From contig JAZLGU010000044.1 of NCBI GenBank assembly GCA_045616485.1, positions 897 to 64,896 on the forward strand: DNA of 64,000 nt. The letters run 5' to 3'. The first letter of the stretch is position 1, and every line of letters begins with the position of its first letter. Shown here piece by piece: positions 1 to 15,500 of the stretch. The translations under genes and the position numbers were made by a program. Source of the stretch: Lachnospiraceae bacterium (GTDB lineage Bacteria > Bacillota > Clostridia > Lachnospirales > Lachnospiraceae). The notes under the pieces are model-generated. The model saw only the letters and a program-made list of their open reading frames with translations, ran no database searches and was not told the DNA's origin.

Positions 1-964
1 TATCATTAATTGCAGTAAACTTATAGTAAAGATTCTCCACAGGTGTCTCTGTAGTATAAGCTCCTTTTGCTTTGCTAAAGTCTACCTTCTTCCAAAAGTC
101 ATTGATAAAGCAATCTGCCATCTTTACCTGGCCATCATAATTGGGGTGAAAGTCTACAAATTTACCATCTGCACCATACTGCAGATACTGAGAATTAAAT
201 AAGCTGTCAAGATTTACATAGTAAACATTACTATCGCTTGAAGCTAATGCTTTATAATACTGTTGAATCTCATTTATTGCGGTTTTTACAGATCTGGTAA
301 AAAGGTAAGAGGTTATTATATCCATATTGACTATACTTGATAAAGTGGAAACACCATAATTATCATTATAACCTACATTAGTAAGAGCGATTTTACAATT
401 TGGATTATAACTCTCAATAACAGAAATAGTTTGTTTTACTTTTTCATTTATTGAAGCAATATATTTTATATGAAGCTCATTTTTAGAGTTCCCTAAAGCA
501 TCGGTAACTGCTTTATATACAGGGCTACTAGTTGTGATTCTGTTCTTACTTCCAATCAAATCAGGAGTGTCATAGCCTGCTCTGTATAAAGCTTCACCCA
601 GCATATGAATTATATCATTACCACCAATGCAAATTGTTATAAAATCAGCCTTTTTGATATCATCGATAACTTTTGCATCGTTAATAATCTGATAAAAAAC
701 ATCATCCGTAGTATAGCCACCTTTAGCATCATTACGAATAATGATTTCAACATTCTTGGATTTTTCCAGCTTTTCCTTTACATATACAGGATAAGTAGTC
801 CAATCTTTACCATCATATGTTGCATAGTCTGTCAAACTATCCCCCAGCGCCAGATAAGCGACCTTAGTTCTTCCGGCTGCATCAGCATATCTTAACGGTA
901 AAAGAGTAATGCAACATGCAAGCATAACAACAAGTGCCAGTGCTTTTTTTGTAAATCTTTTCAT
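1..964 (-). CDS. secreted SGNH/GDSL-family hydrolase (3' end runs off the window)
   Basis: Absent from the ORF track because it is open at the window edge. Hand translation from the ATG (complement of 962-964), preceded by GGAGGG, gives MKRFTKKALALVVMLACCITLL (signal peptide). Then come LALGDSLTD (block I GDS), CIGGNDI (block III GxND) and DFHPN (block V DxxH). Confidence 0.8.
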   Translation of the reverse strand, partial: MKRFTKKALALVVMLACCITLLPLRYADAAGRTKVAYLALGDSLTDYATYDGKDWTTYPVYVKEKLEKSKNVEIIIRNDAKGGYTTDDVFYQIINDAKVIDDIKKADFITICIGGNDIIHMLGEALYRAGYDTPDLIGSKNRITTSSPVYKAVTDALGNSKNELHIKYIASINEKVKQTISVIESYNPNCKIALTNVGYNDNYGVSTLSSIVNMDIITSYLFTRSVKTAINEIQQYYKALASSDSNVYYVNLDSLFNSQYLQYGADGKFVDFHPNYDGQVKMADCFINDFWKKVDFSKAKGAYTTETPVENLYYKFTAIND

Positions 965-1014
965 TATATCGCCCTCCAAAAGTTAGTATATATAGTATAT
1001 ACTTTTTGTCCCCA

Positions 1015-1087
1015 AGGTGGTGTAAACTTAGTATAAATATACACTTAATTAATTATATTTATTGTGTCTTCTGTTTTTACACCACCT
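1015..1087. repeat. 12-bp inverted repeat AGGTGGTGTAAA / TTTACACCACCT separated by 49 nt of AT-rich DNA
   Basis: Read directly: arms at 1015-1026 and 1076-1087. It lies 50-120 nt upstream of the minus-strand GDSL gene start, so it may be an operator or 5'-UTR stem. Confidence 0.55.
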
Positions 1088-1239
1088 CTTAATAATATAT
1101 AGTGAAGTAAGCAATGTAAATAGGCAATGTGGTTCAAATGTTTATATATTTGCAAAAGAAGACTCGACATAAACGAACTATACTCCAGATGATAGTGTAA
1201 AATACTAATTTTATCCTCAGGATATTTCCCTTATTAGGG

Positions 1240-1269
1240 TTGACTTAGATTTATTCTTTTTTGTATAAT
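1240..1269 (+). promoter_or_regulatory. candidate sigma-A promoter (TTGACT - 18 nt - TATAAT) upstream of the DUF2971/MTase/AsnB-like operon
   Basis: -35 TTGACT at 1240-1245 and -10 TATAAT at 1264-1269. This would give a 5' UTR of roughly 270 nt before the ATG at 1546. Confidence 0.35.
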
Positions 1270-1545
1270 GACAAATAATGACAGACAATATGAATGCTTG
1301 CATCTGCCCGTGTGCCCTCACTGTCAAATTGCTAATGATGTTAATGATTTCAACGCCAGCTTGAAAAGACACTTGAAGATAGCCCCAAGTTTTATAACGA
1401 AGATTTAGTGAATTTCGTAAAAAAGCCATTTTAATTGGGATGATGTCACATCAAAAACATTAGATTTATACAAAAAGTAATAGTTATTCTTCCATGGATA
1501 TATAATAGTAATTTTTAAATATATAAAGCATAAGGTAAACATCCA

Positions 1546-2382
1546 ATGTCGACTATTAATTATCAAAAGTTTCCAAGTCTTCAGACCTTTGAGGATCTGG
1601 ATGACTATTATGAAAACAAATATGCACACCATACTGAATACAATCATTATGCAGGCAAGAATGCTATCAAATCTATTGTCAAAAATAATGAATTCTGGAT
1701 TTCTTCTGTAAAAGGATTTAATGATTGTGAAGATACCGCGCAGTTTACAGATAATCTAAATGCTTATTATTCATTATGCTTTAGCACAGGAACGGAAGAA
1801 AATCTGGCTTTATGGTTTATTTATTCCAATAAAGATGGCGGCCGCATCAGATTCAACAAATTTAATCAAATATCTAAAATTATTGATAATTCTACTTTTA
1901 CACTTGCAATTAAAAATGCAAATAATACTACCACAAATCTTATGACACTCCAAAAAGGAAAAGATTTTGATTTGATTATTGGAGATATTATTTATAAAGG
2001 GCAAGAGAAGAAAGGTAAAGTAGCATTAAGATATAATACATTTATAAACTATCATATAGCCTGTAAAGAAATTAAAAAATTCAAAGAAGAGCATGTTGGA
2101 TTTATTAAAGATAATATATGGTACTACGAAAAAGAAACTCGTGTCCTTATAAAATTAAAGGATAATGTACTAAAATCCATCACTTTTAATGAAAACAAAG
2201 AATACATAATAAAAATGAATTTTTCCAATGTTAAGCTATATAAACTTAATGTTGATTTATCACCTGGAATTACAGAAAATGAATTCTACGATTTATCAAA
2301 AGAATTGATCAGTTCAAAATATCAGGTGGCTATTAAACCAAGCTGTTTTTTCGGTAAAATTAGAAAATGGCCCAATAACTAG
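1546..2382 (+). CDS. hypothetical protein, DUF2971-like
   Basis: 278-aa ORF. The N-terminal HYAGKNAIKSIVKNNEFWISSVKGFNDCEDTAQF resembles the DUF2971 signature (YHYT...l..il....l..s....lNDp.E), recalled from memory. It is the first gene of a tightly spaced three-gene unit. Confidence 0.5.
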   Translation: MSTINYQKFPSLQTFEDLDDYYENKYAHHTEYNHYAGKNAIKSIVKNNEFWISSVKGFNDCEDTAQFTDNLNAYYSLCFSTGTEENLALWFIYSNKDGGRIRFNKFNQISKIIDNSTFTLAIKNANNTTTNLMTLQKGKDFDLIIGDIIYKGQEKKGKVALRYNTFINYHIACKEIKKFKEEHVGFIKDNIWYYEKETRVLIKLKDNVLKSITFNENKEYIIKMNFSNVKLYKLNVDLSPGITENEFYDLSKELISSKYQVAIKPSCFFGKIRKWPNN

Positions 2383-2402
2383 TTCTCCCCAGGGTACCCA
2401 TC

Positions 2403-3167
2403 ATGCTTACTAATCTTAAAACAAAAATAAAACAACAGGAAAAACATAACATAATTGCAAAAATAGTTATGAAGATATACAGACTATTTAAGAAGATTCT
2501 TCGATTTATTACCAGCAGAAAGTACAGATCTCTGGTGAAGATGAAGTTCTTTCATTCCAAAAGGGCTCAGCAGACCACCTGTTATACTGCTATGGATCGT
2601 TATCCCAATGAATTTGCTGCTGCAAAGGAATACTTTGATTCTATCAATAAAACGGATATTAGAATCCTTTCCTATGGCTGTTGCACCGGCGAAGAAGTAG
2701 TGACACTTAGGCAGTATTTTCCGGAGGCTACCATTGTAGGGGCTGAGATTAATGCTGACAGCTTGCGTATATGTAAAAAGCGAAAGCTGGATAATAAGAT
2801 TGTTTTTATCAAGTCCATTCCTAAAAAGATAGCAAAGTATGGTCCATACGATATGGTGCTGGCCATGGCAGTACTGGAACGTACACCACAGTATGTGCAA
2901 AATAACGGCATCACAGACCTTTCTAATATTTATCCTTATGAAAAGTATGACAAGCAGGTAATAGAGCTGGATTCATATCTTAAAAAGGATGGCTTGTTTT
3001 TATGTAGCTATACCCATTATTTCTTACCAGACTCTACTGTGGGGAAGAAATATAATGTATATGGCAACTGTGGCTTTAAGGGTCAGATTTTTGACACTCA
3101 TAGTAAGCTAAAAAGTAGTGATAAAGCATTTCCGGATATGTTTATAAAAAGTAAATTACAGGGGTAG
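2403..3167 (+). CDS. class I SAM-dependent methyltransferase, CheR-like motif set
   Basis: RILSYGCCTGEEVVTL matches CheR motif I (IWSaGCsTGEEpYS). IVGAEINADSL and YDMVLAMAVLE fit the post-I and motif II/III positions. It starts 20 nt after the preceding gene and ends 6 nt before the next. The exact start is uncertain because the RBS is weak. Confidence 0.7.
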   Translation: MLTNLKTKIKQQEKHNIIAKIVMKIYRLFKKILRFITSRKYRSLVKMKFFHSKRAQQTTCYTAMDRYPNEFAAAKEYFDSINKTDIRILSYGCCTGEEVVTLRQYFPEATIVGAEINADSLRICKKRKLDNKIVFIKSIPKKIAKYGPYDMVLAMAVLERTPQYVQNNGITDLSNIYPYEKYDKQVIELDSYLKKDGLFLCSYTHYFLPDSTVGKKYNVYGNCGFKGQIFDTHSKLKSSDKAFPDMFIKSKLQG

Positions 3168-3173
3168 TTTCTC

Positions 3174-5105
3174 ATGTCAGCGATATATGGAGCTGTAGAT
3201 CTAAAAAACACTAGTGACTTTTCAGTCCAGGCAGAAAAGTATAAAAAGGAATATTCAGCGTATGCAGTAGAGCATGTAGATAATATAATTTCCGGCTCTG
3301 CCTTTATGGGCTGTGCCCATCAGTATTTTACTCCTGAAGCAGAACGTGATGTGTTGCCTGTAGAAGAGCCCGAGCTGCTTTTCACAGCCGACTGTTTCCT
3401 GGACAATCATATAGAGCTTAAAGAGGCGATGCAGCTCCCCTCTGATACTCCGGACGGGGCAGTGATACTGGCAGCGTTTAAGAAGTGGAAAAAGGATGTT
3501 ATAAAGCATCTTCATGGCTCCTTTTCCTTTGCTATCTATGATAAAGAGGCCCGTGAAGTCATGCTGGCCAATGACCGTTTTGCCCAGCGTTGTTTATTCT
3601 ATACCGTAAGGGGCAGTCAGGTTCATTTTTCTACACTCTTTTATCCATTACTTCGTAATAGTGGTCTGGACTTTAAAAAGAATAATCGCTGGCTTTTGGA
3701 CAGTATTTCCATGCGTGGACCTGTTATGATGTCTGAATGCAGGGAGACTGCCGTAGACTCCGTATATAAGGTAGTAAGCGGCACTTTCGTTACCATTAGT
3801 CTCGGCAGCGACGACAATGCCATTATAGAAGAGCATGAGTATTACAGGCCAAAAGATGAGATCAAGGTAAATAGAAAAATCACTCCTAAAAAGAGTGAGG
3901 ATATGATAAAAGATGTGATGTACCATGCCGTGGGCAGGATACTTAGAAATAAAGATCATATAGGTGCTCAGCTTAGCCGCGGACTGGACAGTACTTCAGT
4001 CGCCTGTACAGCTGCCATTCTTATGGCAAGAGAAGGAAAGTCTATAAACAGCTATACATCTGTCCCTTTAAAGGAGGCCAATCTGGATAATAAGGGGTAT
4101 CTCGTATACGACGAGACCAGTGGCGTCATGAAAGTAGTAGAAGCTTACCCCAATATCAAGCCTCATTTTATCGATACTGCCGGTAGAAATTACCTGCAGG
4201 AAGCAGATAATATCATTCGTCTTTGGGAGCTGCCTTGCAAGTCCCAGCAAAATTCCATCTGGTCCGACGAGATATATAAGCAGGCTGCAGCAGATGGAGT
4301 AAAGATAATGCTGACCGGAGCTACGGGCAATTGCACCATATCCGCCGGTAGCATCGAAAATTCACTCTATGATCATTTAAAGCATCTGCGCTTTATAAAA
4401 GCTTACAAAAGCCTTGGAGTAGCAAAAAAAGTAGGGGTACCGCCTAAGCGTTATTTAAGAAATCTTTGGAATCTCTACAAGAATTATAGAAAATGGGTAA
4501 AAGAGAATCATAGCTTCTACGAAGAAAATTTCACCAGAAGCGATATAGGAGAAGCATACAAGCTCTCTACCCGTATGGTGGAAAATAATGGTCATTATCT
4601 GCCCTTTGAAGATCTTAAGGCCATGCGTAAAGTCATGTTTTTCCAGAAGGCTAATGCCCAGATAGGCGAAGTAGATACCAAGACCAGTCTTACATATGGT
4701 GTACTGCCCAGAGACCCCATGCGTACCCACGATATGATGCAGCTCTGCTATTCCCTGCCTATAGAATGTTTCTCCTGGGATGATTATGACAGACGTCTGG
4801 TAAGAGAGGGTATGGCAGGTATTGTACCTGAATTTATACGTCACGACGTGCGCCATCGTGGCCGTCAGAGTGGTGATATCTACTATAGACTGAGTCTGGT
4901 ATGGGATGATGTATTACCTGTCATAAAAAATCAGCTATATAGTCCATCTACTTTAGACTATCTGGATAAAAAGAAAATAGCAGAGTGGCTGGATACTCTG
5001 ACCCGGGACAATCTCGAAGAGAATAGCAATAAAACCCTGATGGTAGTAGATGCTTATTCATTTTCACTTTATGTAAATCAGCTTGATAAACTCATATCAA
5101 AATAG
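3174..5105 (+). CDS. asparagine synthetase (AsnB)-family enzyme lacking the glutaminase Cys; lasso-peptide macrolactam synthetase-like
   Basis: 643 aa. It starts MSAIYG instead of MCGI (Cys2 nucleophile replaced by Ser). FTADCFLDNHIELKEAM sits at the position of NGEIYN..EL. LSRGLDSTSVACTAA matches the SGGLDSS PP-loop. The RBS AGGGG is upstream. Confidence 0.75.
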   Translation: MSAIYGAVDLKNTSDFSVQAEKYKKEYSAYAVEHVDNIISGSAFMGCAHQYFTPEAERDVLPVEEPELLFTADCFLDNHIELKEAMQLPSDTPDGAVILAAFKKWKKDVIKHLHGSFSFAIYDKEAREVMLANDRFAQRCLFYTVRGSQVHFSTLFYPLLRNSGLDFKKNNRWLLDSISMRGPVMMSECRETAVDSVYKVVSGTFVTISLGSDDNAIIEEHEYYRPKDEIKVNRKITPKKSEDMIKDVMYHAVGRILRNKDHIGAQLSRGLDSTSVACTAAILMAREGKSINSYTSVPLKEANLDNKGYLVYDETSGVMKVVEAYPNIKPHFIDTAGRNYLQEADNIIRLWELPCKSQQNSIWSDEIYKQAAADGVKIMLTGATGNCTISAGSIENSLYDHLKHLRFIKAYKSLGVAKKVGVPPKRYLRNLWNLYKNYRKWVKENHSFYEENFTRSDIGEAYKLSTRMVENNGHYLPFEDLKAMRKVMFFQKANAQIGEVDTKTSLTYGVLPRDPMRTHDMMQLCYSLPIECFSWDDYDRRLVREGMAGIVPEFIRHDVRHRGRQSGDIYYRLSLVWDDVLPVIKNQLYSPSTLDYLDKKKIAEWLDTLTRDNLEENSNKTLMVVDAYSFSLYVNQLDKLISK

Positions 5106-5120
5106 ACGTGATAAAAAATT

Positions 5121-5134
5121 ACAATATTGTTACA
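5121..5134. promoter_or_regulatory. perfect 10-bp palindrome ACAATATTGT overlapping an ATATTGTTACA motif; candidate operator
   Basis: Palindrome at 5121-5130 and motif at 5124-5134, just upstream of the putative -35 at 5139. Related motifs occur at 5515-5525 and 5596-5607. Confidence 0.3.
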
Positions 5135-5138
5135 TCTC

Positions 5139-5167
5139 TTGCAATATATATAGCCTGGTGGTAAGAT
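5139..5167 (+). promoter_or_regulatory. candidate promoter for alpha1/beta1 (TTGCAA - 17 nt - TAAGAT, with TGG immediately upstream of the -10)
   Basis: Hand-counted spacing: -35 at 5139-5144 and -10 at 5162-5167. Confidence 0.35.
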
Positions 5168-5212
5168 GGCAAAGGTTCAAAATGAATTAGTAAATTGTAG
5201 GAGGATTATACA

Positions 5213-5350
5213 ATGAAGAATTGGAATACACCCGCAGTAGAAGAAGTAAAGGTTAGCAATACACAGTACGGTGGTGCTACTGTTACAGAGCCTGATGACG
5301 TTTTTGTAAACGCTGATGGTAAGTGGGAAGCTACTTTCGTAGCATCATAA
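5213..5350 (+). CDS. RiPP precursor-like peptide alpha1 (45 aa): MKNWNTPAVEEVKVSNTQYGGATVTEPDDVFVNADGKWEATFVAS
   Basis: The ATG lies 7 nt after AGGAGGA (5199-5205) and the stop TAA is at 5348-5350. Its paralog alpha2 differs mostly by synonymous changes. The leader-like N-terminus is shared with three neighbouring short ORFs. Confidence 0.8.
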   Translation: MKNWNTPAVEEVKVSNTQYGGATVTEPDDVFVNADGKWEATFVAS

Positions 5351-5369
5351 TTTGAGGGAGGACATAAAG

Positions 5370-5504
5370 ATGAAGAATTGGAATATGCCTGCAGTAGAAG
5401 TAGTTGAGATCTCAGCTACACAGAATGGTGGTATGCCTAGCAAGAATTTCGACCAGTCATGGTACGATGAGAATGGCGCTCTTCACGTAAATTTCGAGAG
5501 CTAA
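5370..5504 (+). CDS. RiPP precursor-like peptide beta1 (44 aa): MKNWNMPAVEVVEISATQNGGMPSKNFDQSWYDENGALHVNFES
   Basis: The ATG is preceded by GAGGGAGGA (5354-5362), 19 nt after the alpha1 stop. The stop TAA is at 5502-5504. It aligns without gaps to alpha1. Confidence 0.8.
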   Translation: MKNWNMPAVEVVEISATQNGGMPSKNFDQSWYDENGALHVNFES

Positions 5505-5527
5505 TTATTTAAACATATTGTAACAGA

Positions 5528-5581
5528 GGGGGACGTTTCCAGCTGACAAGATTTAAATGTTGTCAGTTGGAAACGTCCCCC
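5528..5581 (+). terminator. 22-bp stem hairpin (one G-U pair, 10-nt loop) between the two alpha/beta cassettes; terminator, attenuator or RNA-stability element
   Basis: GGGGGACGTTTCCAGCTGACAA (5528-5549) pairs with TTGTCAGTTGGAAACGTCCCCC (5560-5581). There is no clean U-tract. Outer arms CATATTGTAACA (5514-5525) and TGTTACAAATATG (5596-5608) extend the structure. Confidence 0.6.
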
Positions 5582-5617
5582 TGTCATATATTAATTGTTA
5601 CAAATATGAAATATTTC

Positions 5618-5646
5618 TTGATATAAAAATAACATAGTGATATTAT
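5618..5646 (+). promoter_or_regulatory. candidate promoter for alpha2/beta2 (TTGATA - 17 nt - TATTAT with TGA extended -10)
   Basis: -35 at 5618-5623 and -10 at 5641-5646, with TG at 5638-5639. Confidence 0.45.
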
Positions 5647-5688
5647 CTAAAATATCTTATAAGAAGTAATTTTTGGGAGGAAAAAATT

Positions 5689-5829
5689 ATGAAGAACAAT
5701 TGGAATACACCAGCTGTAGAGGAAGTAAAGGTTAGCAATACTCAGTACGGCGGCGCTACTGTTACAGAGCCTGATGACATTTTTGTAAATGCTGATGGTA
5801 AGTGGGAAGCTACATTCGTAGAGTCATAA
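5689..5829 (+). CDS. RiPP precursor-like peptide alpha2 (46 aa): MKNNWNTPAVEEVKVSNTQYGGATVTEPDDIFVNADGKWEATFVES
   Basis: The ATG is preceded by GGGAGG (5675-5680) and the stop TAA is at 5827-5829. Relative to alpha1 there are 8 synonymous codon changes, 2 replacements (V->I, A->E) and one extra Asn codon. Confidence 0.8.
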   Translation: MKNNWNTPAVEEVKVSNTQYGGATVTEPDDIFVNADGKWEATFVES

Positions 5830-5848
5830 TTATAGGGAGGACATAAAA

Positions 5849-5998
5849 ATGAAGACTTGGACAGATCCAGATGTAAAGGTACTTGATATCGAAGAGACAG
5901 CAAATGGCGGTATGCCTAGCAAAAATTTCGACCAGCAGTGGTACGATGAGAATGGCGCTCTTCACGTAAATTTCGTTGATCCTAACGCTAATAGCTGA
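5849..5998 (+). CDS. RiPP precursor-like peptide beta2 (49 aa): MKTWTDPDVKVLDIEETANGGMPSKNFDQQWYDENGALHVNFVDPNANS
   Basis: The ATG is preceded by AGGGAGGA, 19 nt after the alpha2 stop, and the stop TGA is at 5996-5998. The core is nearly identical to beta1, including a 37-nt identical stretch, while the leader has diverged. Confidence 0.8.
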   Translation: MKTWTDPDVKVLDIEETANGGMPSKNFDQQWYDENGALHVNFVDPNANS

Positions 5999-6016
5999 TT
6001 CTATCAGGTTATTACT

Positions 6017-6046
6017 CCGCACATGTAAATGTGCGGTCTTTTTTTG
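6017..6046 (+). terminator. Rho-independent terminator closing the peptide locus
   Basis: CCGCACAT (6017-6024), loop GTAA, ATGTGCGG (6029-6036), followed by TCTTTTTTT. Confidence 0.8.
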
Positions 6047-6218
6047 TTCATTTCTTATATCACATAATATCATTATATTTATAAGTAATTTTCAAGTGAT
6101 TATTCATTATTATTTTTATAATTTGCTTGCTTTTTCTTCTATAATAGGATATCATATCGTCTTGTACAAATGTATACAATTATACCATGATTATGAAATA
6201 CAGGAATATTTCATAGTA

Positions 6219-6304
6219 GGAGATAAAGAGTTCTCCATTTATTCCACTTCGTTTCATAAAAGGAGATAAAGAGTTTCCCATTTATTCCACTTCGTTTCAT
6301 AAAA
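6219..6304 (+). repeat. 43-bp tandem direct repeat (2 full copies plus a partial third that supplies the aminotransferase RBS)
   Basis: GGAGATAAAGAGTTCTCCATTTATTCCACTTCGTTTCATAAAA (6219-6261) is repeated at 6262-6304, with TTCTCC changed to TTTCCC. GGAGATAACATG then follows at 6305. Confidence 0.85.
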
Positions 6305-6313
6305 GGAGATAAC

Positions 6314-7513
6314 ATGTCACTTGAACTTTCTAAAAAAGCACTAGCAGTAAAGCCTTCATCTACCCTGGCTATCACAGCCAAGGCTAAGAAAATGAAAGCT
6401 GAGGGTATCGATGTAGTAGGATTTGGTGCAGGTGAGCCGGATTTTAATACACCTCAGAATATTTGTGATGCAGCCAAAAAAGCTATTGACGATGGCTTTA
6501 CCAAGTATACACCTGCTTCAGGTACAGTAGAGCTGCGACAGGCTATTGCCCAGAAGTTTAAAAGATTTAATAATCTTTCCTACGATATAAGTCAGATAGT
6601 AGTATCTAACGGTGGTAAGCATTCTCTTACCAATGTTTTTGAGGCTATTATTAATCCCGGTGATGAGGTCATCATCCCTGCACCTTTCTGGCTCAGCTAT
6701 CCTGAGATAGTAAAGCTTTGTGGCGGTGTACCTGTTATCGTTGACTGTCCTGCCAGCCAGAGCTATAAAATGACAGCTGCTCAGCTGCAGGCTGCTATTA
6801 CAGAGAGGACAAAGGCAGTTGTACTCAATACTCCTTCCAATCCCACAGGTATGATATATACCAAGGATGAGCTACTTGAGCTGGCTCAGGTCATTGTAAA
6901 GAATGATATCTACTGTGTATCCGACGAGATGTACGAGAATCTCGTATATACAGATGATGAGGTCGTATCTATAGCTTCCCTGGGTCAGGATATCTATGAC
7001 CGTACCATTACCTGCTCCGGCGTATCAAAGGCCTATGCCATGACCGGCTGGAGAATAGGCTATGTAGGCGCTCCTCGTGAGATTGCTGCTCTTATGGGCT
7101 CCATCCAGTCTCATCAGACTTCCAATCCCGGCTCTATCGCTCAGGCTGCTTCTTTAGAGGCTCTTTGCGGCCCTCAGGACACTATTGAGGATATGAGAAA
7201 AGAATTTGACAGAAGAAGAGTATATATGTATGACAGACTGTCCTCCATGCCTCTTATTTCCTGTCTGAAGCCTCAGGGTGCTTTCTATGTATTTGTAGAT
7301 ATGACCAATGTTTTTGGCAAAAAGTATCAGGAGCAGACTATTGAAAATATCGGCGATGTAGCTCGTATCCTTATCGACGATTACAAGACAGCAGTTATTC
7401 CTTGTGCTGATTTTGGTGCCCCCAATCATATGCGTCTTTCCTATGCCATCTCCATGGAAAACATCGAGAAGGGTCTGGATAGAATAGAAGGCTTCCTCAA
7501 TACTATCTGCTAA
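6314..7513 (+). CDS. pyridoxal-phosphate-dependent aspartate aminotransferase (class I)
   Basis: 399 aa. It has the SKAYAMTGWRIGY PLP-lysine motif, NPSNPTG-like TPSNPTG, and typical AspAT length. Confidence 0.85.
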   Translation: MSLELSKKALAVKPSSTLAITAKAKKMKAEGIDVVGFGAGEPDFNTPQNICDAAKKAIDDGFTKYTPASGTVELRQAIAQKFKRFNNLSYDISQIVVSNGGKHSLTNVFEAIINPGDEVIIPAPFWLSYPEIVKLCGGVPVIVDCPASQSYKMTAAQLQAAITERTKAVVLNTPSNPTGMIYTKDELLELAQVIVKNDIYCVSDEMYENLVYTDDEVVSIASLGQDIYDRTITCSGVSKAYAMTGWRIGYVGAPREIAALMGSIQSHQTSNPGSIAQAASLEALCGPQDTIEDMRKEFDRRRVYMYDRLSSMPLISCLKPQGAFYVFVDMTNVFGKKYQEQTIENIGDVARILIDDYKTAVIPCADFGAPNHMRLSYAISMENIEKGLDRIEGFLNTIC

Positions 7514-7550
7514 AATAAAATTAAAAGAGAATAGGAAAATCCTTGTTTTT

Positions 7551-7591
7551 AGGCCAGTTTTATTATACAATAAAGACTGGCCTATTTTTTT
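7551..7591 (+). terminator. Rho-independent terminator after the aminotransferase gene
   Basis: AGGCCAGT ... ACTGGCCT stem followed by a T7 run. Confidence 0.7.
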
Positions 7592-7614
7592 ATTATACTT
7601 AAAGAGGAGATTTT

Positions 7615-8412
7615 ATGATCGGATTTATCGGTACCGGCAATATGGGTATGCCACTTATAAGTGGTGCCATAGAGGCTTTTGGCCATGATAATGTTATTAT
7701 CCATGGTAAGAATGAAAGAAAAAATGATGAGATATCCTGTAAATCTCATATAGTCTGCGGCTCCTCCAATAAAGAGGTAGTAAAGCTGTCCGAGCTTATT
7801 ATACTGGCTATAAAGCCCCAGGTATATGACGAGGTATTTGCTGAGATAAAAGAGACTGTACTTACATCCACCGGTAAAAAGACCTTTGTGTCTCTGGCTC
7901 CCGGTCGTACCTGCGCCTCCATTGAAGAATACTTTGAAGGCAAGGTAAATGTAGTACGCGCCATGCCCAATACTCCTGCCCAGATAAAGCAGGGTATGAC
8001 AGCCATATCTTTTTCCGATTCCTTTGACGGAAAAAAGGATGATGTGCTTAAGCTTTTTTCCTGCGTAGGTAAAAGCGTATGCATGCCGGAGAGACTTATT
8101 GATTCCAGTATAGTAGCTTCCGGATCATCACCTGCTTTCGTATATATGTTTATAGAAGCGCTGGCTGATGGAGCCGTAAAGTATGGTATTCCTCGTGAGC
8201 AGGCTATCCAGATGGCCGCTCAGACTGTTCTGGGCTCAGCCCGTATGGTGCTGGAGTCTAAAGAGCATCCTGCCATTCTTAAAGATAAAGTATGTTCTCC
8301 CGGCGGTACCACTATTTGCGGTGTAGCTGCCCTGGAGGAGTACGGCTTTAGAAATGCCATTATAAAGGCCTGTGATGCCACCTATGAAAAGGCATCTGCT
8401 TTAAAGAAATGA
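7615..8412 (+). CDS. proC: pyrroline-5-carboxylate reductase
   Basis: GFIGTGNMG Rossmann motif, MPNTPA, SPGGTT signature, 265 aa. Confidence 0.85.
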   Translation: MIGFIGTGNMGMPLISGAIEAFGHDNVIIHGKNERKNDEISCKSHIVCGSSNKEVVKLSELIILAIKPQVYDEVFAEIKETVLTSTGKKTFVSLAPGRTCASIEEYFEGKVNVVRAMPNTPAQIKQGMTAISFSDSFDGKKDDVLKLFSCVGKSVCMPERLIDSSIVASGSSPAFVYMFIEALADGAVKYGIPREQAIQMAAQTVLGSARMVLESKEHPAILKDKVCSPGGTTICGVAALEEYGFRNAIIKACDATYEKASALKK

Positions 8413-8957
8413 TTATGGATACACCAAAAATAAAATCAAAAGAATTAATTAAAAAAGGCTCTATAGTAGAATTTTACAGTCTGGATATGGAGATGCCCGG
8501 TGGCCATACCGCCAGATGGGATTTTGTGAGCCATAGAGGAGCTGCTGCCATTATTTGTCCTGATGGGACAGGACGTATATATATGGTCAGACAGTATCGT
8601 CCCGGCACTGATTCCATTACTTTAGAGATACCTGCAGGCTGTGTGGATGCAGGTGAAGATAAAAAGACTGCAGCTATGCGTGAGCTGGAGGAAGAGGTAG
8701 GTGTAAAGTGCGAGACAGCAGAGCATCTTATTACCTACTATGGCATCCCGGCCTACAACAATGAATGTGTAGAGATATACATAGCAAAAAATATCAGCGC
8801 CGGCCATCAGCATCTGGATGCGGACGAGCAGATTACAGTAGAATCTTACTCTTTATCTGAGCTTACGGACATGATTTTATCCGGTGTTATAGTCGATGGG
8901 AAGACTATCGCAGGCATTCTGGCTTATAAAGAGAAGTTAAATAAAAAGGAAATATAA
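8409..8957 (+). CDS. NUDIX hydrolase (ADP-ribose pyrophosphatase-like)
   Basis: Nudix box GCVDAGEDKKTAAMRELEEEVG. It overlaps the proC stop by 4 nt. Confidence 0.8.
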   Translation: MIMDTPKIKSKELIKKGSIVEFYSLDMEMPGGHTARWDFVSHRGAAAIICPDGTGRIYMVRQYRPGTDSITLEIPAGCVDAGEDKKTAAMRELEEEVGVKCETAEHLITYYGIPAYNNECVEIYIAKNISAGHQHLDADEQITVESYSLSELTDMILSGVIVDGKTIAGILAYKEKLNKKEI

Positions 8958-8975
8958 TAAAGGAGATACTTTCTT

Positions 8976-10301
8976 ATGAGAATGTATGATTTAATTACCA
9001 AAAAGAAACATGGTGAAGAATTAACAAAAGAAGAGATAACATTTATTATTAACGGCTATACAGAGGGTACTATCCCTGATTATCAGATGTCTTCCTTCCT
9101 CATGGCAGTATACTTTAAGGGTATGACAGACCGTGAGACAGTAGATATGACCAATGCCATGATAGATACCGGCGACAGACTTGATCTGTCCGCTATTAAG
9201 GGCGTAAAAGCCGATAAGCATTCCACAGGCGGTGTAGGCGATAAGACCAGTCTTATTATCGGACCTATGGTAGCTGCCCTTGGTGTTCCTGTAGCCAAGA
9301 TGAGCGGACGTGGTCTGGGTCATACCGGCGGCACCATCGACAAGCTGGAGAGCTTTAAAGGCTTTTCCGTTTCTCTTACCGATCAGCAGTTTATAGATAA
9401 TGTAAATCAGATTGGTCTTGCCATTATGGGTCAGACAGCCAATCTGGTACCTGCAGATAAGAAGATCTATGCCCTTCGTGACGTTACAGCTACAGTAGAC
9501 AATATGTCTCTTATTGCAGCTTCCATCATGAGTAAAAAGATAGCTGCAGGCTCTGACGTTATTGTTCTTGATGTTAAGGTAGGCTCCGGCGCCTTTATGA
9601 AGACTCTGGAAGACGCCAAAGACCTGGCTGAGACTATGGTACGCTTAGGTGAGGGCTGTGGTCGTAAGACTTACGCAGTTCTTTCCGATATGAGCCAGCC
9701 TTTAGGTGAGTACGTAGGTAATGCCCTGGAGGCCTATGAGGCTATTGAAGCCCTTAAGGGACGCGGTCCTGAGGACTTAATGGAGGCCTGCATGACTCTT
9801 GCTTCCTATATGCTTATCGGTGCCGGTAAGGCTCGTGATGCAGCAGAAGCCCAGAGACTTTTACAGGGTACTATTGATAGCGGCGCAGCTCTTAAAAAGC
9901 TTAGCGAGTTTGTGGCAGCTCAGGGCGGCGATGCGTCTGTTATCGAGAAAAACGGCAAATTCTCCCACACAGAATTTTGCGAAGATATTATTTCTACCAC
10001 AGAGGGCTATGTATCTGAGATCATCACTGATGAGATTGGTATGACCAGCCTTATCCTGGGTGGTGGCCGTGAGACTAAGGAGTCAGATATTGACCTGTCA
10101 GTAGGTATCAAGATACTTAAAAAGGTAGGCGACTACGTATCCAAGGGCGATCCTATTGCCAGACTTTATGCCAATGATGTAGAAAAGCTTAAAGTGGCAT
10201 CTGCCCGCCTGCAGGCTGCTTATATCTACTCAGATAAGAAAGTAGAAAAGCCCAAGCATGTTCTTGGCATTATTACAAAGGACGAGACGATTATTTTCTA
10301 G
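8976..10301 (+). CDS. pdp: pyrimidine-nucleoside (thymidine) phosphorylase
   Basis: DKHSTGGVGDK and SGRGLGHTGGTIDKLE motifs, 441 aa. Confidence 0.9.
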   Translation: MRMYDLITKKKHGEELTKEEITFIINGYTEGTIPDYQMSSFLMAVYFKGMTDRETVDMTNAMIDTGDRLDLSAIKGVKADKHSTGGVGDKTSLIIGPMVAALGVPVAKMSGRGLGHTGGTIDKLESFKGFSVSLTDQQFIDNVNQIGLAIMGQTANLVPADKKIYALRDVTATVDNMSLIAASIMSKKIAAGSDVIVLDVKVGSGAFMKTLEDAKDLAETMVRLGEGCGRKTYAVLSDMSQPLGEYVGNALEAYEAIEALKGRGPEDLMEACMTLASYMLIGAGKARDAAEAQRLLQGTIDSGAALKKLSEFVAAQGGDASVIEKNGKFSHTEFCEDIISTTEGYVSEIITDEIGMTSLILGGGRETKESDIDLSVGIKILKKVGDYVSKGDPIARLYANDVEKLKVASARLQAAYIYSDKKVEKPKHVLGIITKDETIIF

Positions 10302-11945: not shown

Positions 11946-12518
11946 ATGGATGAAATAAAAGCATTAGAAGCAAAAATTGAAGCTATTCTTTTTACCATGG
12001 GTGAGGCAGTAGAGGCTGACCGTATCGCTATAGCTCTGGAGCAGGATACTGATGCCGTAAGAAATATTATTCGTGATATGGCACTTAAATACAAAGAGGC
12101 TGATCGCGGTATCCAGATCATAGAGCTCAATGATTCCTTCCAGCTCTGCACCAAGCCTGACATGTATGAGTACATTATCAAGGTGGCTCATGCCCCTAAA
12201 AAGCCTGTACTTACAGATGTTTTACTGGAGACCCTGTCCATCATAGCTTATAAGCAGCCCATTACCAGGACTGAGATATCCGCTATTCGCGGTGTCAATT
12301 GCGATCATGCGGTAAGCAAGCTGGTAGAGTACAATCTGGCTACTGAGCTGGGCCGTATGGATGCTCCCGGACGTCCTATAGCCTTTGGTACCACAGAAGA
12401 ATTTCTTCGTCACTTTGGCCTTAGCAGCCTGTCCGATCTGCCTATCGTCAATCCCGAAAAGCTGGAAGACTTCAAGATAGAAGTCCAGCAGGAACTGCAG
12501 TTAACATTAGATATCTAA
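11946..12518 (+). CDS. scpB: segregation and condensation protein B
   Basis: EAILFTMGE... and LETLSIIAYKQPITRTEISAIRGV winged-helix signature; synteny with scpA. Confidence 0.9.
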   Translation: MDEIKALEAKIEAILFTMGEAVEADRIAIALEQDTDAVRNIIRDMALKYKEADRGIQIIELNDSFQLCTKPDMYEYIIKVAHAPKKPVLTDVLLETLSIIAYKQPITRTEISAIRGVNCDHAVSKLVEYNLATELGRMDAPGRPIAFGTTEEFLRHFGLSSLSDLPIVNPEKLEDFKIEVQQELQLTLDI

Positions 12519-12536
12519 TTTTTTAAAGGAAGAAAA

Positions 12537-15500
12537 ATGATACATCTTTCAAAGCAAAAAATCAGAGATTTAGCAGCAGATGAGATGTCCTATAATAAGG
12601 GCGTCACATATTTTAACAATGGCCACATTCAGTCAGCATCCTACTCAAAGCAGAGCAACAAATACCGCTTTGTCATAAAGGGAGCCAGCAGCTATGTGGT
12701 CAATATAAATGAGCTTTCCGACGGCATGTTTGACTATACCTGTACCTGTCCCGGCAGCAAGCTGGAGAAGGGCGCCTGCAAGCATGTTGTATGCTCATTA
12801 TGCATGCTTTTTAAGCATCAGGAGAAGCAGGAGGGCAATCTGCCCAAGACCTCTGAAGAAAAGCGCATATACAACGTTTTAGACTATTTTGACAATCAGA
12901 ACAGCCTGTCATTAACAGGCGATGTTTTCCATATAGAGCCAGTCATCACTTTGCCCGGTATGCTGAAAAATGCTTCCGGCAAGGCCATGATTTCCATTAA
13001 AGTAGGCTCCAATCGACTTTATAAAGTACAGAATCTAAAGAAGTTTCTGGACTCCTTTGTGCGTCAGGACCCTATAGTACTGGGTAAGGACTTTCATTTC
13101 ATCTATGGTGAGAGCGCCTTTGACAAAGATTCCAAAATGTTTTTAGACTATCTCTTAGGCATATTTGACGTGGCTGAGCTTACTGCCGGAAAAGACGGCA
13201 ATGAGATTTTTTCCAGAAGTCAGATGATTATCTCAAAGTTTCTTTTTATCAAGCTGCTTAAGCAGATAGGTAATCTTAGCTGTACTTTGGAGCTCTATGG
13301 TAATACATATACAGATGTAAAGTGTGTTACCCAGAATCCCAATATCGAATTTGATTTAATAGATTTTAATGACTCTGTTATTTTTGACTATAAGGACAAA
13401 GAGCCTGTTATTCCTGTGACGGAGAATGGCGAAGTCCTTTACAGAGATGGATTTTTATATACGCCTGACAAGGTATTTCTTCGTAATTTCCTTCCATTTT
13501 TCAACAATCTGGGAGGCGACAGGGCTTCTTTAGTATTTGAGGGCAAGTACAAGCAGCGTTTCCTGGAAAATGTACTGCCAAAGCTCCACGAGACTATGGA
13601 GATCAATATCCCGGAAGAGCTTTCCGACAAGTATATTTCTCCTGAGTTAAAAGCAGAGATTTATTTTGACAGATATAATAATTATATAAAGGCTGAGCTT
13701 ATTTTTACCTATGGTGATTATAAGTTTAATTCCTTTGAGAGTCCTAAAAGTGCTCCTTACATTATCTTAAGAGATAAGGAAAAGGAGCGGAGAATGGCTG
13801 AGATACTGGAGAGTCACGGCTTTGATGCTTTTTCCGGCTTCTATCTTTTAAGAGCTGATAACGGTATCTACGACTTTATTACAGTAGGTGTGGATGAGCT
13901 TAAAGAATATGCTGAACTTTTCTACTCAGAGGACTTTAAGAAGCTTAAGAACAACCAGAACAGAAGATTCAGTATAGGTCTTAATGTCTCCAAAGAAAGC
14001 GATCTGCTGGATCTCACTCTGTCCTACGGAGAGATCTCCAAAGAGGAAATGAAGCAGATTTTCCGCGCTTACAGACTGAAAAAGAAATTTTACCGTCTGT
14101 CAGATGGCTCCTTTATAGACCTGCAGTCTGAGGAGTTCCATGAGCTTAATGACATCCTGGATGATTTCTCCATATCTGCCAAGGATATTGAGAAAAAGGA
14201 TGATCTGCGTATCTCCAAGGGCCTTGCTATATTTGCCGACAGAGTATTCGACGAGGGTCGTTTTATCGTCAGCAAAAACGAAGAATTCAAGTCCCTGGTA
14301 TCCAATATACTGGAGGGTCAGAATGAGGATTATGCTATCCCTTCAGGTATTACTGCCGAGCTTCGTTCATATCAGGTCAATGGCTATAAATGGCTAATGA
14401 ATCTTGCAAGCAATGGTCTGGGCGGTATCCTGGCCGACGATATGGGTCTTGGTAAGACTCTGCAAAGTATCGTATATATCACAGAGATGAAGAGACGCTT
14501 CCCAGGCGAGCAGTTCTTAATAGTTTGTCCTACTTCAGTAGTATACAATTGGATGGATGAATTTGAGACATTCTCCCCGGATCTCAAATGTCGCATCATA
14601 GAAGGCCTTCCACAGGAGCGAGAGGCCCTCATAAAGGACAGCAAGGGCTTTGATGTGCTTATTACCTCATACCCGCTGGTAAGACGCGATTATACGGCAT
14701 ATGAAGGCAAGATGTTCAATACTATTTTCCTTGATGAAGCCCAGTTTATCAAAAATGCAGCTTCAGTAAATGCCAAGACAGTAAAGGCACTTGAATCCAA
14801 GCACAGATTTGCACTTACAGGTACTCCTATAGAAAACAGCCTGTCAGAGCTTTGGTCCATATTTGATTTTATCATGCCTTTTTACCTGCTTTCATATACA
14901 AAGTTCATTACCAAGTATGAAAAGCCTATTACCAAGGGTGACGAAGGCATAAAGGCCGTATTAAACAAGCGCATTCAGCCATTTGTAATGCGTCGTATGA
15001 AGTCAGATGTGCTGCTGGAATTACCTGAAAAGATAGAAGAAAAGATGACTGCGGAGCTGACACCAGAGCAGAAGAGTATCTATGTGTCATATTTGGAAAG
15101 TGTAAAGGGAGACCTGCGTGCCGAGCTTATGAGCGAGGGTATCAATGCCTCCAGATTCCAGATACTGGCAGCCCTTACCAGACTCCGTCAGATATGCTGT
15201 CATCCGGCTACCTTCCTGGAAAATTACGATGGTACCTCAGGTAAAATGGAGCTTTTCTTAGAGCTTTTACCAAATCTCATTGAGAATGGCCACAGAGTGC
15301 TGGTATTCTCCCAGTTTACCAGTATGCTGGACATCATAAAGAGTGAGCTGGATAAGAGAGGATATACCTATTTTTACTTGGATGGCGCCACCAAGAATAC
15401 CGAACGTGTAGAGTACGTAAAGGCCTTCAATAGCGGCGAGCGTCATATGTTCCTAATATCTCTTAAGGCAGGCGGTACAGGCCTCAATCTGACCGGTGCC

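Follow-up and report, generated by a model that had tools for sequence, protein, structure and literature searches.

A predicted paeninodin-type lasso peptide locus without leader-processing genes in a Lachnospiraceae genome, and a methyltransferase family located beside lasso cyclases

A 64-kb stretch of DNA from a Lachnospiraceae bacterium (64,000 nucleotides of contig JAZLGU010000044.1, hereafter the window) was analyzed for a gene cluster near its start, which an earlier note made from the sequence alone had described as a locus for peptides that are made on ribosomes and modified after translation (RiPPs). Positions 2403-6046 appeared to form a paeninodin-type lasso peptide locus, which encodes a putative tailoring methyltransferase (MTase), a lasso cyclase (the C protein), and four precursor peptides (A proteins), while genes for the leader-processing proteins B1 and B2 were absent from the window. 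With modest confidence, we view it as a 'satellite' locus, which would depend on B1/B2 and an exporter provided in trans by a canonical locus at another site of the genome. The family of such loci has already been predicted in rumen and gut Lachnospiraceae, and the unusual features are the natural absence of B1/B2 and the associated MTase family. The earlier note held that no described architecture matches the locus, but the cyclase and precursors belong to the Butyrivibrio/Pseudobutyrivibrio paeninodin-like family described in silico (PMC7533575). The system is less exotic than first proposed, as it represents a recurrent variant of this known family without leader-processing genes, with an unrelated defence-type gene upstream.

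Lasso cyclase and precursor peptides

The 643-amino-acid (aa) AsnB homologue encoded at 3174-5105 on the plus strand is, as judged from its sequence, a paeninodin-type lasso cyclase. The protein matched the Pfam families Asn_synthase (PF00733) and GATase_7 (PF13537), and its N-terminus reads MSAIYG, so that a Ser (Ser2) stands in place of the glutaminase Cys; the earlier note had rightly described an AsnB-type enzyme without this residue. The best match in NCBIfam was NF033535, the model of the lasso isopeptide-bond-forming cyclase, with a score of 150 bits that did not reach the cut-off of 525, while TIGR01536, the model of genuine AsnB, scored lower at 110 bits. The protein keeps every one of the 40 alignment columns found invariant among 17 family members, including residues S268/G270/L271/D272/S273 of the S-x-G-L-D-S ATP-binding loop. 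The cyclase is 47% identical to that of Pseudobutyrivibrio xylanivorans (CP043028; locus L001), where the gene order is NTP_transf_5, ABC exporter, PqqD (B1), Transglut_core3 (B2), HprK-like kinase, cyclase, and two short genes, and it is 41-58% identical to cyclases sitting in canonical B1-B2-K-C-A-A clusters, where K is the kinase. The NF033535 match and these orthologues in canonical clusters support the lasso-type assignment made in the earlier note. As the protein equals the canonical cyclases in length, it carries no fused extra domain such as a RiPP recognition element (RRE). Among 5.8 billion proteins searched, about 75 relatives of the cyclase were found, and the named ones all came from Butyrivibrio or Pseudobutyrivibrio; for the search of loci, an alignment of nine cyclases served as the seed, as the 17-cyclase alignment was too diverse. 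A sequence search of the PDB with the cyclase gave no match, and a viral-contig scan found no cyclase relatives and no sign of a phage-borne module.

Downstream of the cyclase gene are four short open reading frames (ORFs), namely alpha-1 (5213-5350, 45 aa), beta-1 (5370-5504, 44 aa), alpha-2 (5689-5829, 46 aa), and beta-2 (5849-5998, 49 aa), all on the plus strand and each preceded by a GGAGG-type Shine-Dalgarno site. For beta-1, the ATG at 5370 lies behind GGGAGGA, while the ORF listing begins at an upstream TTG at 5352. The short ORFs are not a chance finding, as homologous precursors adjoin homologous cyclases in many other genomes, and they are two diverged copies of one alpha/beta precursor pair. 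The two short genes of L001 encode MKTWNTPVVEEINFTATQYGGPQDNDFDNQWYNTETGKWEGTFKS and MKTWENAAVEEIEFTATKEGGVPSRRFDNHWFDENGAEHVNFES, which are orthologous to the alpha and beta peptides of the window, where the alpha peptides end in ...GKWEATFVAS and the beta peptides in ...DENGALHVNFES. Both types are present in L001, L004, and L057, which bears out the paired alpha/beta precursors of the earlier note, while L060 has only the alpha type and L058 only the beta type.

The leader of alpha-1 is MKNWNTPAVEEVKVSNTQY and its predicted core is GGATVTEPDDVFVNADGKWEATFVAS, while the predicted core of beta-1 is GGMPSKNFDQSWYDENGALHVNFES. The beta-2 core equals that of beta-1 plus a C-terminal extension, VDPNANS, and the extended form also occurs in L058. 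All four precursors have a WxxP motif in the leader (W4-N-T-P, W4-N-M-P, W5-N-T-P, and W4-T-D-P), a Thr three residues before a GG, and a C-terminal Ser. In paeninodin-like leaders, WxxP has been defined experimentally as the motif that the RRE binds (PMC13381572). With the cleavage site predicted to precede the GG, the leaders comprise 19-20 residues, and all four predicted cores start with GG and have an Asp at position 9 counted from the first Gly, which suggests a Gly1-Asp9 ring. This agrees with the canonical lasso definition, by which core position 1 is Gly, Ala, Ser, or Cys and an Asp or Glu occupies one of positions 7-9. The precursor model NF033524 scored the four peptides at 14-16 bits against a cut-off of 27 and was still the best-scoring model.

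Rumen Butyrivibrio lasso precursors described in silico have leaders of the form MKxWNTPxxExLxINET.. and cores beginning with GG (Sabino et al. 2020, PMC7533575). The Butyrivibrio/Lachnospira precursors also have the Thr at -3, a G1-D8/9 ring, and a conserved C-terminal Ser, and several of the genomes have two LasA (PMC7533575; Hungate1000 survey, PMC13289728); the Butyrivibrio sp. YAB3001 of PMC7533575 is represented by locus L007 in our comparison. Given this pattern and the feature set above, the short ORFs are therefore predicted to encode lasso precursors of a known family that is not chemically characterised. The residue closing the WxxP motif varies among loci: the second (beta-position) precursor mostly has WxxA (e.g. 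MKTWENAAVEE) in the canonical loci L001, L057, and L064-L071, unlike both beta copies of the window, which have WxxP, and this may bear on RRE discrimination.

Substitution patterns showed that the precursors are under purifying selection. The duplication is old, as the copies differ at a proportion of synonymous differences (pS) of about 0.31; between alpha-1 and alpha-2, the nonsynonymous proportion (pN) was 0.028 and pS was 0.31. Between the beta copies, nearly all replacements fell in the leader, while W, P, V, V, I, T, GG, and the core were spared. Such a pattern in both types is what continued recognition by an RRE and a peptidase predicts. For the cyclase, a comparison with its nearest relative, that of locus L003, gave a pN of 0.22 and a pS of 0.69. 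Across loci, the beta core keeps 17-21 of its 25 residues (68-84%) while the cyclases are merely 46-50% identical, which points to a conserved molecular target in the rumen/gut ecosystem; for example, 20 of the 25 residues of the beta-1 core match the L004 beta core, and the cyclases of the two loci are 46% identical.

Absence of leader-processing genes and the methyltransferase family

Searches of the 64-kb window agreed with the earlier note that the canonical partners are absent. No B1, B2, kinase, NTP transferase, or cluster-type ABC exporter was found by tblastn with the P. xylanivorans proteins, and profile hidden Markov models (HMMs) for B1, B2, and the kinase, built from 9-14 sequences each and giving 1e-40 to 1e-143 with positive controls, had no match at E <= 10. 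Hence, the window holds neither of the canonical lasso hallmarks B2 (Transglutaminase-like, PF13471) and B1 (PqqD-like RRE, PF05402), nor the paeninodin-like accessories HprK-type kinase, NTP_transf_5, and exporter, while the C-terminal Ser is present in all four precursors.

Twenty loci with cyclases at least about 40% identical were inspected. Fifteen of them (L001, L005-L009, L057, and L064-L071) were canonical and had the kinase directly upstream of C, and five were without B1 and B2 (B-less), comprising the window, L003, L004, L058, and L060, which represent four unrelated genomic contexts. B-less loci of a cyclase and precursors recur, with at least four genomic contexts represented. A neighbour-joining tree placed the cyclases of the B-less loci together with that of canonical L057 inside the alpha/beta subclade. 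The neighbourhood of the cyclase homologues included adjoining short WxxP ORFs, which the earlier note had suggested looking for, but a DUF2971 gene, which the note had counted among the cluster genes, was in none of the other loci fetched.

Two of the B-less loci had further features. In L004, direct repeats of 156 nucleotides (nt) at 2480-2635 and 6678-6833, with 98% identity and GC-rich palindromic units of about 62 nt, flank a 4.07-kb segment that contains a HAD gene, a metallophosphoesterase gene, the B-less cyclase, and the alpha/beta precursors, and this segment may be a mobile or recombination-prone cassette. In L058, within 12290-13565, a single beta-type precursor is followed by ORFs of 89 and 301 aa without Pfam matches, which are candidates for immunity or processing functions.

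The gene directly upstream of the cyclase (2403-3167, plus strand) encodes a class I S-adenosylmethionine (SAM)-dependent MTase of 254 aa, a putative lasso tailoring enzyme. The earlier note had called it CheR-type, which was not upheld: no match to CheR (PF01739) was found at E <= 1, and the Pfam matches were to the generic class I families Methyltransf_31/23/25/12/11. Among the relatives with Pfam data, a weak CheR signal was observed in two, P0120 and the L021 homologue (22.4 bits, cut-off 27). Scores for PCMT (PF01135; 13.1 bits, cut-off 20.3) and TIGR00080 (12.7 bits, cut-off 159) were also low, the Pfam search gave no match to the O-methyltransferase family Methyltransf_2, and a sequence search of the PDB returned one weak generic match. 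The AlphaFold2 (AF2) model, with a predicted local distance difference test (pLDDT) value of 89, has a Rossmann MTase fold. Specific links to WbdD (phosphate methylation) and to BpumL and CypM, which are N-terminal RiPP MTases, were dropped, as the template modelling (TM) scores were about 0.4 and, for the latter two, the lasso N-terminus is consumed in the ring.

The genomic contexts indicate that the MTase belongs to the lasso system, as an uncharacterised class I family beside cyclases in six independent contexts. The family is small (40 matches). In L003, a contig of a Lachnospiraceae metagenome-assembled genome (JAZUFN010000169), a GDSL hydrolase gene, the MTase, and a cyclase are found in that order, with the 6-nt gap between the latter two kept and the MTase 98% identical. 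Homologues adjoin lasso cyclases in L061, L124, and L063 of Bacillota and in L040, L021, and L032 of Bacteroidota. The L061 (3373-9961) and L124 (3324-12465) clusters contain 2-3 divergent cyclases and 3-4 WxxP precursors whose long acidic tails end in Ser, along with the MTase and a PF00756 esterase, in the order A-C-A-C-MTase-esterase-A(-C-A). Both are located precisely between pflA and pflB and are thus completely bounded, and no B1, B2, or kinase was found within these bounds. L063, which also has an MTase homologue, is a canonical cluster that includes B1, B2, NTP transferase, and ABC exporter. The Bacteroidota loci were retrieved via the cyclase alone, and they encode MTase homologues of 31-39% identity and a B2 verified by Pfam. 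Homologues in L062 and L123 were not lasso-linked.

Known lasso MTases are of the StspM/LasF type, which act on the C-terminal carboxyl, and of the aspartimide-forming PIMT type (PMC9266682). Like these, the window protein is a putative SAM-dependent tailoring enzyme whose gene lies next to lasso genes; unlike them, it falls in neither family. The MTase family presents a concrete and testable candidate for a new lasso tailoring enzyme in two phyla. The divergent GDSL hydrolase near the locus was considered as a counterpart of the L061/L124 esterase and rejected, as its GDSL and GH16-like domains are typical of carbohydrate esterases. The Bacteroidota locus L040, a lasso-type cluster that also holds B2, the MTase homologue, a cyclase, and a kinase-like gene, includes three tandem paralogous genes of about 185 aa (MDxxxGEIRxF...) at 7230-8998, and a protein with the N-terminus SYPKSGNTWMR that looks sulfotransferase-like by eye only.

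Proposed pathway, rival explanations, and known systems

Under the satellite reading, the four precursors would be translated with leaders of 19-20 residues that carry the RRE-binding motif, and the leaders would be cut before the GG by machinery encoded elsewhere, for which the likeliest source would be the B1/B2 pair of another lasso locus in the same genome, the alternative being host proteases. The cyclase would adenylate Asp9 and join it to the Gly1 amine, which would yield a 9-residue macrolactam with a tail of 16-21 residues. The calculated monoisotopic masses of such lactams are 2664.23 (alpha-1), 2736.26 (alpha-2), 2810.20 (beta-1), and 3332.46 Da (beta-2), and a methyl group would raise each by 14.016. 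The MTase would then add a methyl group, and our guess is that the acceptor would be a carboxylate, either the C-terminal Ser carboxyl or an Asp/Glu side chain. We infer such carboxyl O-methylation because the known lasso MTases are analogous and because the MTase is paired with an esterase in L061/L124. The DUF2971 gene, independently inserted, would share the transcription unit at present without contributing to the pathway. Supply of B1/B2 in trans is favoured because the leaders stay under selection for the RRE-binding motif.

Several points weigh against this reading. No donor locus of B1/B2 was seen in the window, which covers 64 kb of the 89.7-kb contig, and no exporter or immunity gene was found near the locus. 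Moreover, PsmB1/B2 failed to cleave the precursor of a related cluster in which 14 of 19 leader residues are identical (PMC6993621), and cross-cluster service is therefore not guaranteed. The conserved leader Thr is at -3 relative to the GG, compared with the canonical -2, which leaves the true cleavage site and the ring size uncertain. Cleavage after T-x instead would make Y, N, or E the first core residue and place the conserved Asp at position 10, outside the ring sizes of 7-9 known for lasso peptides (PMC7533575). Finally, the methylation chemistry is proposed by analogy and without direct support, as the fold matches of the MTase are generic: a Foldseek search with its model gave generic Rossmann MTases alone, at a TM score of about 0.4.

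An unlikely but credible alternative is that the locus is truly B-independent, where non-dedicated or housekeeping proteases trim the leaders, the cyclase alone forms the macrolactam, and the MTase (together with the esterase in other loci) is the hallmark accessory. Precedent comes from psmCAD without psmB1/B2, which still gave pseudomycoidin from the full-length precursor in E. coli and B. subtilis, albeit at a lower yield than with B1/B2 (PMC6993621). The completely bounded L061 and L124 clusters, with their multiple cyclases and WxxP precursors and no B1/B2/K, fit this explanation, as do the recurrence of B-less loci in at least four contexts of the window's own clade and the fact that three MTase-carrying lasso contexts are B-less. 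However, the WxxP and Thr selected in all four leaders are hard to explain without an RRE and a peptidase, and the combination of the MTase with B2 in L063, L040, L021, and L032 shows that the MTase is not specific to B-less loci. The broader claim, that Lachnospiraceae and related Bacillota possess a natural B-protein-independent lasso pathway with full WxxP leaders, a full-length cyclase, and a new lasso-associated MTase family, is put forward just as tentatively; under it, the PF00756 esterase of L061/L124 might supply leader-cleaving or methyl-ester chemistry. If true, such a pathway would be the second kind of non-canonical lasso biosynthetic gene cluster (BGC) after triculamin, and the first with leader-bearing precursors.

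We consider it improbable that a canonical cluster lost B1/B2/K/D here and left behind a decaying locus that makes no mature product. Such decay could account for the lack of five genes that 15 of the 20 related loci have, and for the foreign gene inserted upstream, which replaced the promoter seen in L003. Yet all six ORFs are intact, every invariant residue of the cyclase is kept, the four precursors have strong Shine-Dalgarno sites, and a terminator closes the locus. The pN and pS values of the cyclase, and the retention of precursor duplicates for long enough to reach a pS of 0.31 with a pN of 0.03, therefore do not fit with decay. It is very unlikely that the AsnB homologue, instead of forming a lasso macrolactam, uses ATP for a different reaction at peptide carboxylates, for example amidation. 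The NF033535 score, far under its cut-off, leaves room for this, as does the rumen clade having no chemically characterised member (PMC7533575, PMC13289728), but the AsnB model scores below the lasso cyclase model, orthologues occur in textbook lasso clusters that also encode B1, B2, and accessories of the paeninodin type, and the Gly1...Asp9 spacing is found in all precursors of the alpha/beta subclade. Least probable of all is the model of the earlier note, a new RiPP class with the DUF2971 protein, a CheR-like MTase, and the AsnB-type enzyme as its core machinery. The three genes are co-directional with gaps of 20 and 6 nt and are probably co-transcribed today, but the model is largely refuted by the comparison with L003, as DUF2971 is absent from this syntenic locus and every other cyclase locus fetched. 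The DUF2971 gene also differs from the cyclase gene in GC content (0.28 and 0.43) and has a homologue in a defence island, the MTase is not CheR-type, and the cyclase and precursors are orthologous to canonical lasso components.

The satellite reading places the locus closest to the paeninodin/pseudomycoidin-type clusters of Bacillota, which comprise A, C, split B1/B2, HprK kinase, NTP transferase, and ABC exporter. Shared features include a homologous cyclase, a WxxP leader, a Thr near the cleavage site, a predicted Gly-to-Asp9 ring, and a core ending in Ser, and the Pseudobutyrivibrio/Butyrivibrio orthologues have the full gene set. In contrast, the window is without B1, B2, kinase, NTP transferase, and exporter, the MTase occupies the usual place of the kinase directly upstream of C, the Thr is at -3, and there are four precursor genes. 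The window precursors are of the same family as those of the Butyrivibrio/Lachnospira rumen clusters, although the latter were reported to be complete after curation (PMC7533575; PMC13289728). Neither study describes the B-less, MTase-linked variant or the conserved alpha/beta orthology, and the term 'methyltransferase' is absent from the text of PMC7533575. As in the minimal psmCA(D) system of pseudomycoidin (Zyubko et al. 2019, PMC6993621), where a paeninodin-type cyclase and precursor work without B1/B2 and host proteins remove the leader, the window combines such a cyclase and precursors without B1/B2. However, that system was an engineered deletion in heterologous hosts and the native psm cluster has B1/B2, whereas the absence in the window is natural and recurrent.

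To our knowledge, triculamin represents the only proven B-less lasso system. Its BGC (PMC12070363) is similarly a natural one without an RRE or leader peptidase, but its precursors are leaderless with a follower, its cyclase is N-terminally truncated and from a distant clade, and it has an acetyltransferase. In comparison, the window has full WxxP leaders and a full-length cyclase of 643 aa with a GATase-like domain.

These findings bear on how lasso loci are counted. The mining rule for lasso clusters, quoted in PMC13289728 as 'PF13471 and Asn_synthase', and those of antiSMASH and RODEO require the B2 peptidase, and B-less loci are therefore invisible or called 'incomplete'. Yet in one cyclase clade, roughly one locus in four is without B1/B2 and still under purifying selection. 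Either the sharing of lasso machinery in trans is routine, or natural systems can do without dedicated leader peptidases, as suggested by the engineered psmCA; both outcomes bear on the counting of lasso diversity and the design of minimal expression constructs.

Inserted DUF2971 gene and layout of the locus

Upstream of the MTase, a gene at 1546-2382 (plus strand) encodes a 278-aa protein that the earlier note had named DUF2971-like and taken as part of the pathway. The family label held, with a PF11185 score of 23.5 bits (cut-off 22) over profile positions 1-89 of 89, but the pathway role did not, as the segment is absent from L003. DUF2971 has been assigned to the ADP-ribosyltransferase (ART) superfamily, near DarT and AbiGi, with modified H-Y-E catalytic motifs (PMC12522546), and on its own it constitutes Aristaios, an anti-phage system of lactococci (PMC11381338). 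The motifs (conserved Tyr and ExE) are present in the window protein: E195-K-E197 (in WYYEKETR), Y150, and Y163 are invariant, and H29 and H34 are at least 90% conserved. Like Aristaios, it is encoded by a stand-alone gene (278 aa, compared with 316 aa for Aristaios), passes the PF11185 cut-off, has the ExE motif, and has a homologue in a defence island. This homologue, P0126, is 39% identical and lies among TIR, Hsp70/MZB, and Band_7 genes, a typical defence island. A Foldseek search of the PDB with the model of the window protein gave no significant ART match, and its assignment as ART-like therefore rests on Pfam, the motifs, and the literature, with the fold taken from the latter. A sequence search of the PDB gave a chance-level match only (E 0.26), PADLOC gave a weak 33-residue match to PDC-S31 (E 8e-4) that was not used, and no papers turned up when the literature was searched for DUF2971 in connection with lasso.

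The comparison with L003 bears on the origin of this gene at its present position. Window positions 1152-2376 (1225 bp, GC 0.29) stand for 145 bp in the syntenic L003, and the right junction of this low-GC segment is the DUF2971 stop codon. No DUF2971 homologue was found in L003 or in any other cyclase locus fetched. With the absence from the syntenic site and the homologue in a defence island, the gene is therefore regarded as an inserted ART-like gene rather than a RiPP enzyme, probably a single-gene defence or toxin-type gene. In L003, a TTGACA-17-TATACT promoter precedes the MTase, and in the window it has been displaced by the inserted segment. A promoter-like site within this segment, TTGACT-18-TATAAT at 1240-1269 (plus strand; a consensus match only, 11/12), is likely the present-day promoter of DUF2971-MTase-cyclase.

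In the GDSL gene, the two loci were 89.6% identical at the DNA level. Identity was 96-100% between 2375 and about 3224, a stretch that takes in the MTase and roughly 50 nt at the start of the cyclase, and then dropped to 56-74% over the remaining part of the cyclase covered by L003. Alignment of window 2375-3280 with L003 2121-3020 placed a sharp breakpoint at approximately 3230-3280. The identity drop inside the cyclase indicates that recombination at a conserved site has exchanged this gene; the precursors were presumably exchanged with it, although the L003 contig stops short of them. Recombinational exchange is common for bacteriocin loci.

The layout given in the earlier note, including the ORF positions, the gaps of 20 nt (DUF2971 to MTase) and 6 nt (MTase to cyclase) between the three co-directional genes, the Shine-Dalgarno sites, and the terminator, proved accurate. 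An intrinsic terminator with a hairpin and a U-tract closes the locus at 6017-6046 (plus strand; -13.2 kcal/mol, z = -4.1). A hairpin that the note had missed lies between the precursor pairs at 5519-5583 (plus strand; -49 kcal/mol, z = -9.6), with a near-perfect stem of about 25 bp and no U-tract, so that the short ORFs fall into two units. Ahead of the second lies a separate promoter-like site, TTGATA-17-TATTAT with a TG extension at 5618-5646 (plus strand; a consensus match only). In an Rfam scan of 1-7000, the only matches were chance ones to miRNA hairpins, all at this stem, which could be an RNA processing element, a stability element, or a Rho-independent pause.

The AT-rich character that the note had ascribed to the whole block was confirmed for the DUF2971 gene (GC 0.28) and, mildly, for the MTase (0.36), but not for the cyclase (0.43) or the precursor ORFs (0.42-0.43), compared with a window mean of 0.40. 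The flanking genes were as it had proposed, with a GDSL-family hydrolase on one side, encoded on the minus strand and truncated where the window starts, and a class I/II aminotransferase on the other. A tandem repeat of a 43-nt unit (2.4 copies, 93% match) at 6209-6312 lies directly upstream of the aminotransferase, which starts at 6314, and each copy holds a Shine-Dalgarno-like stretch, AAAGGAGATAA.

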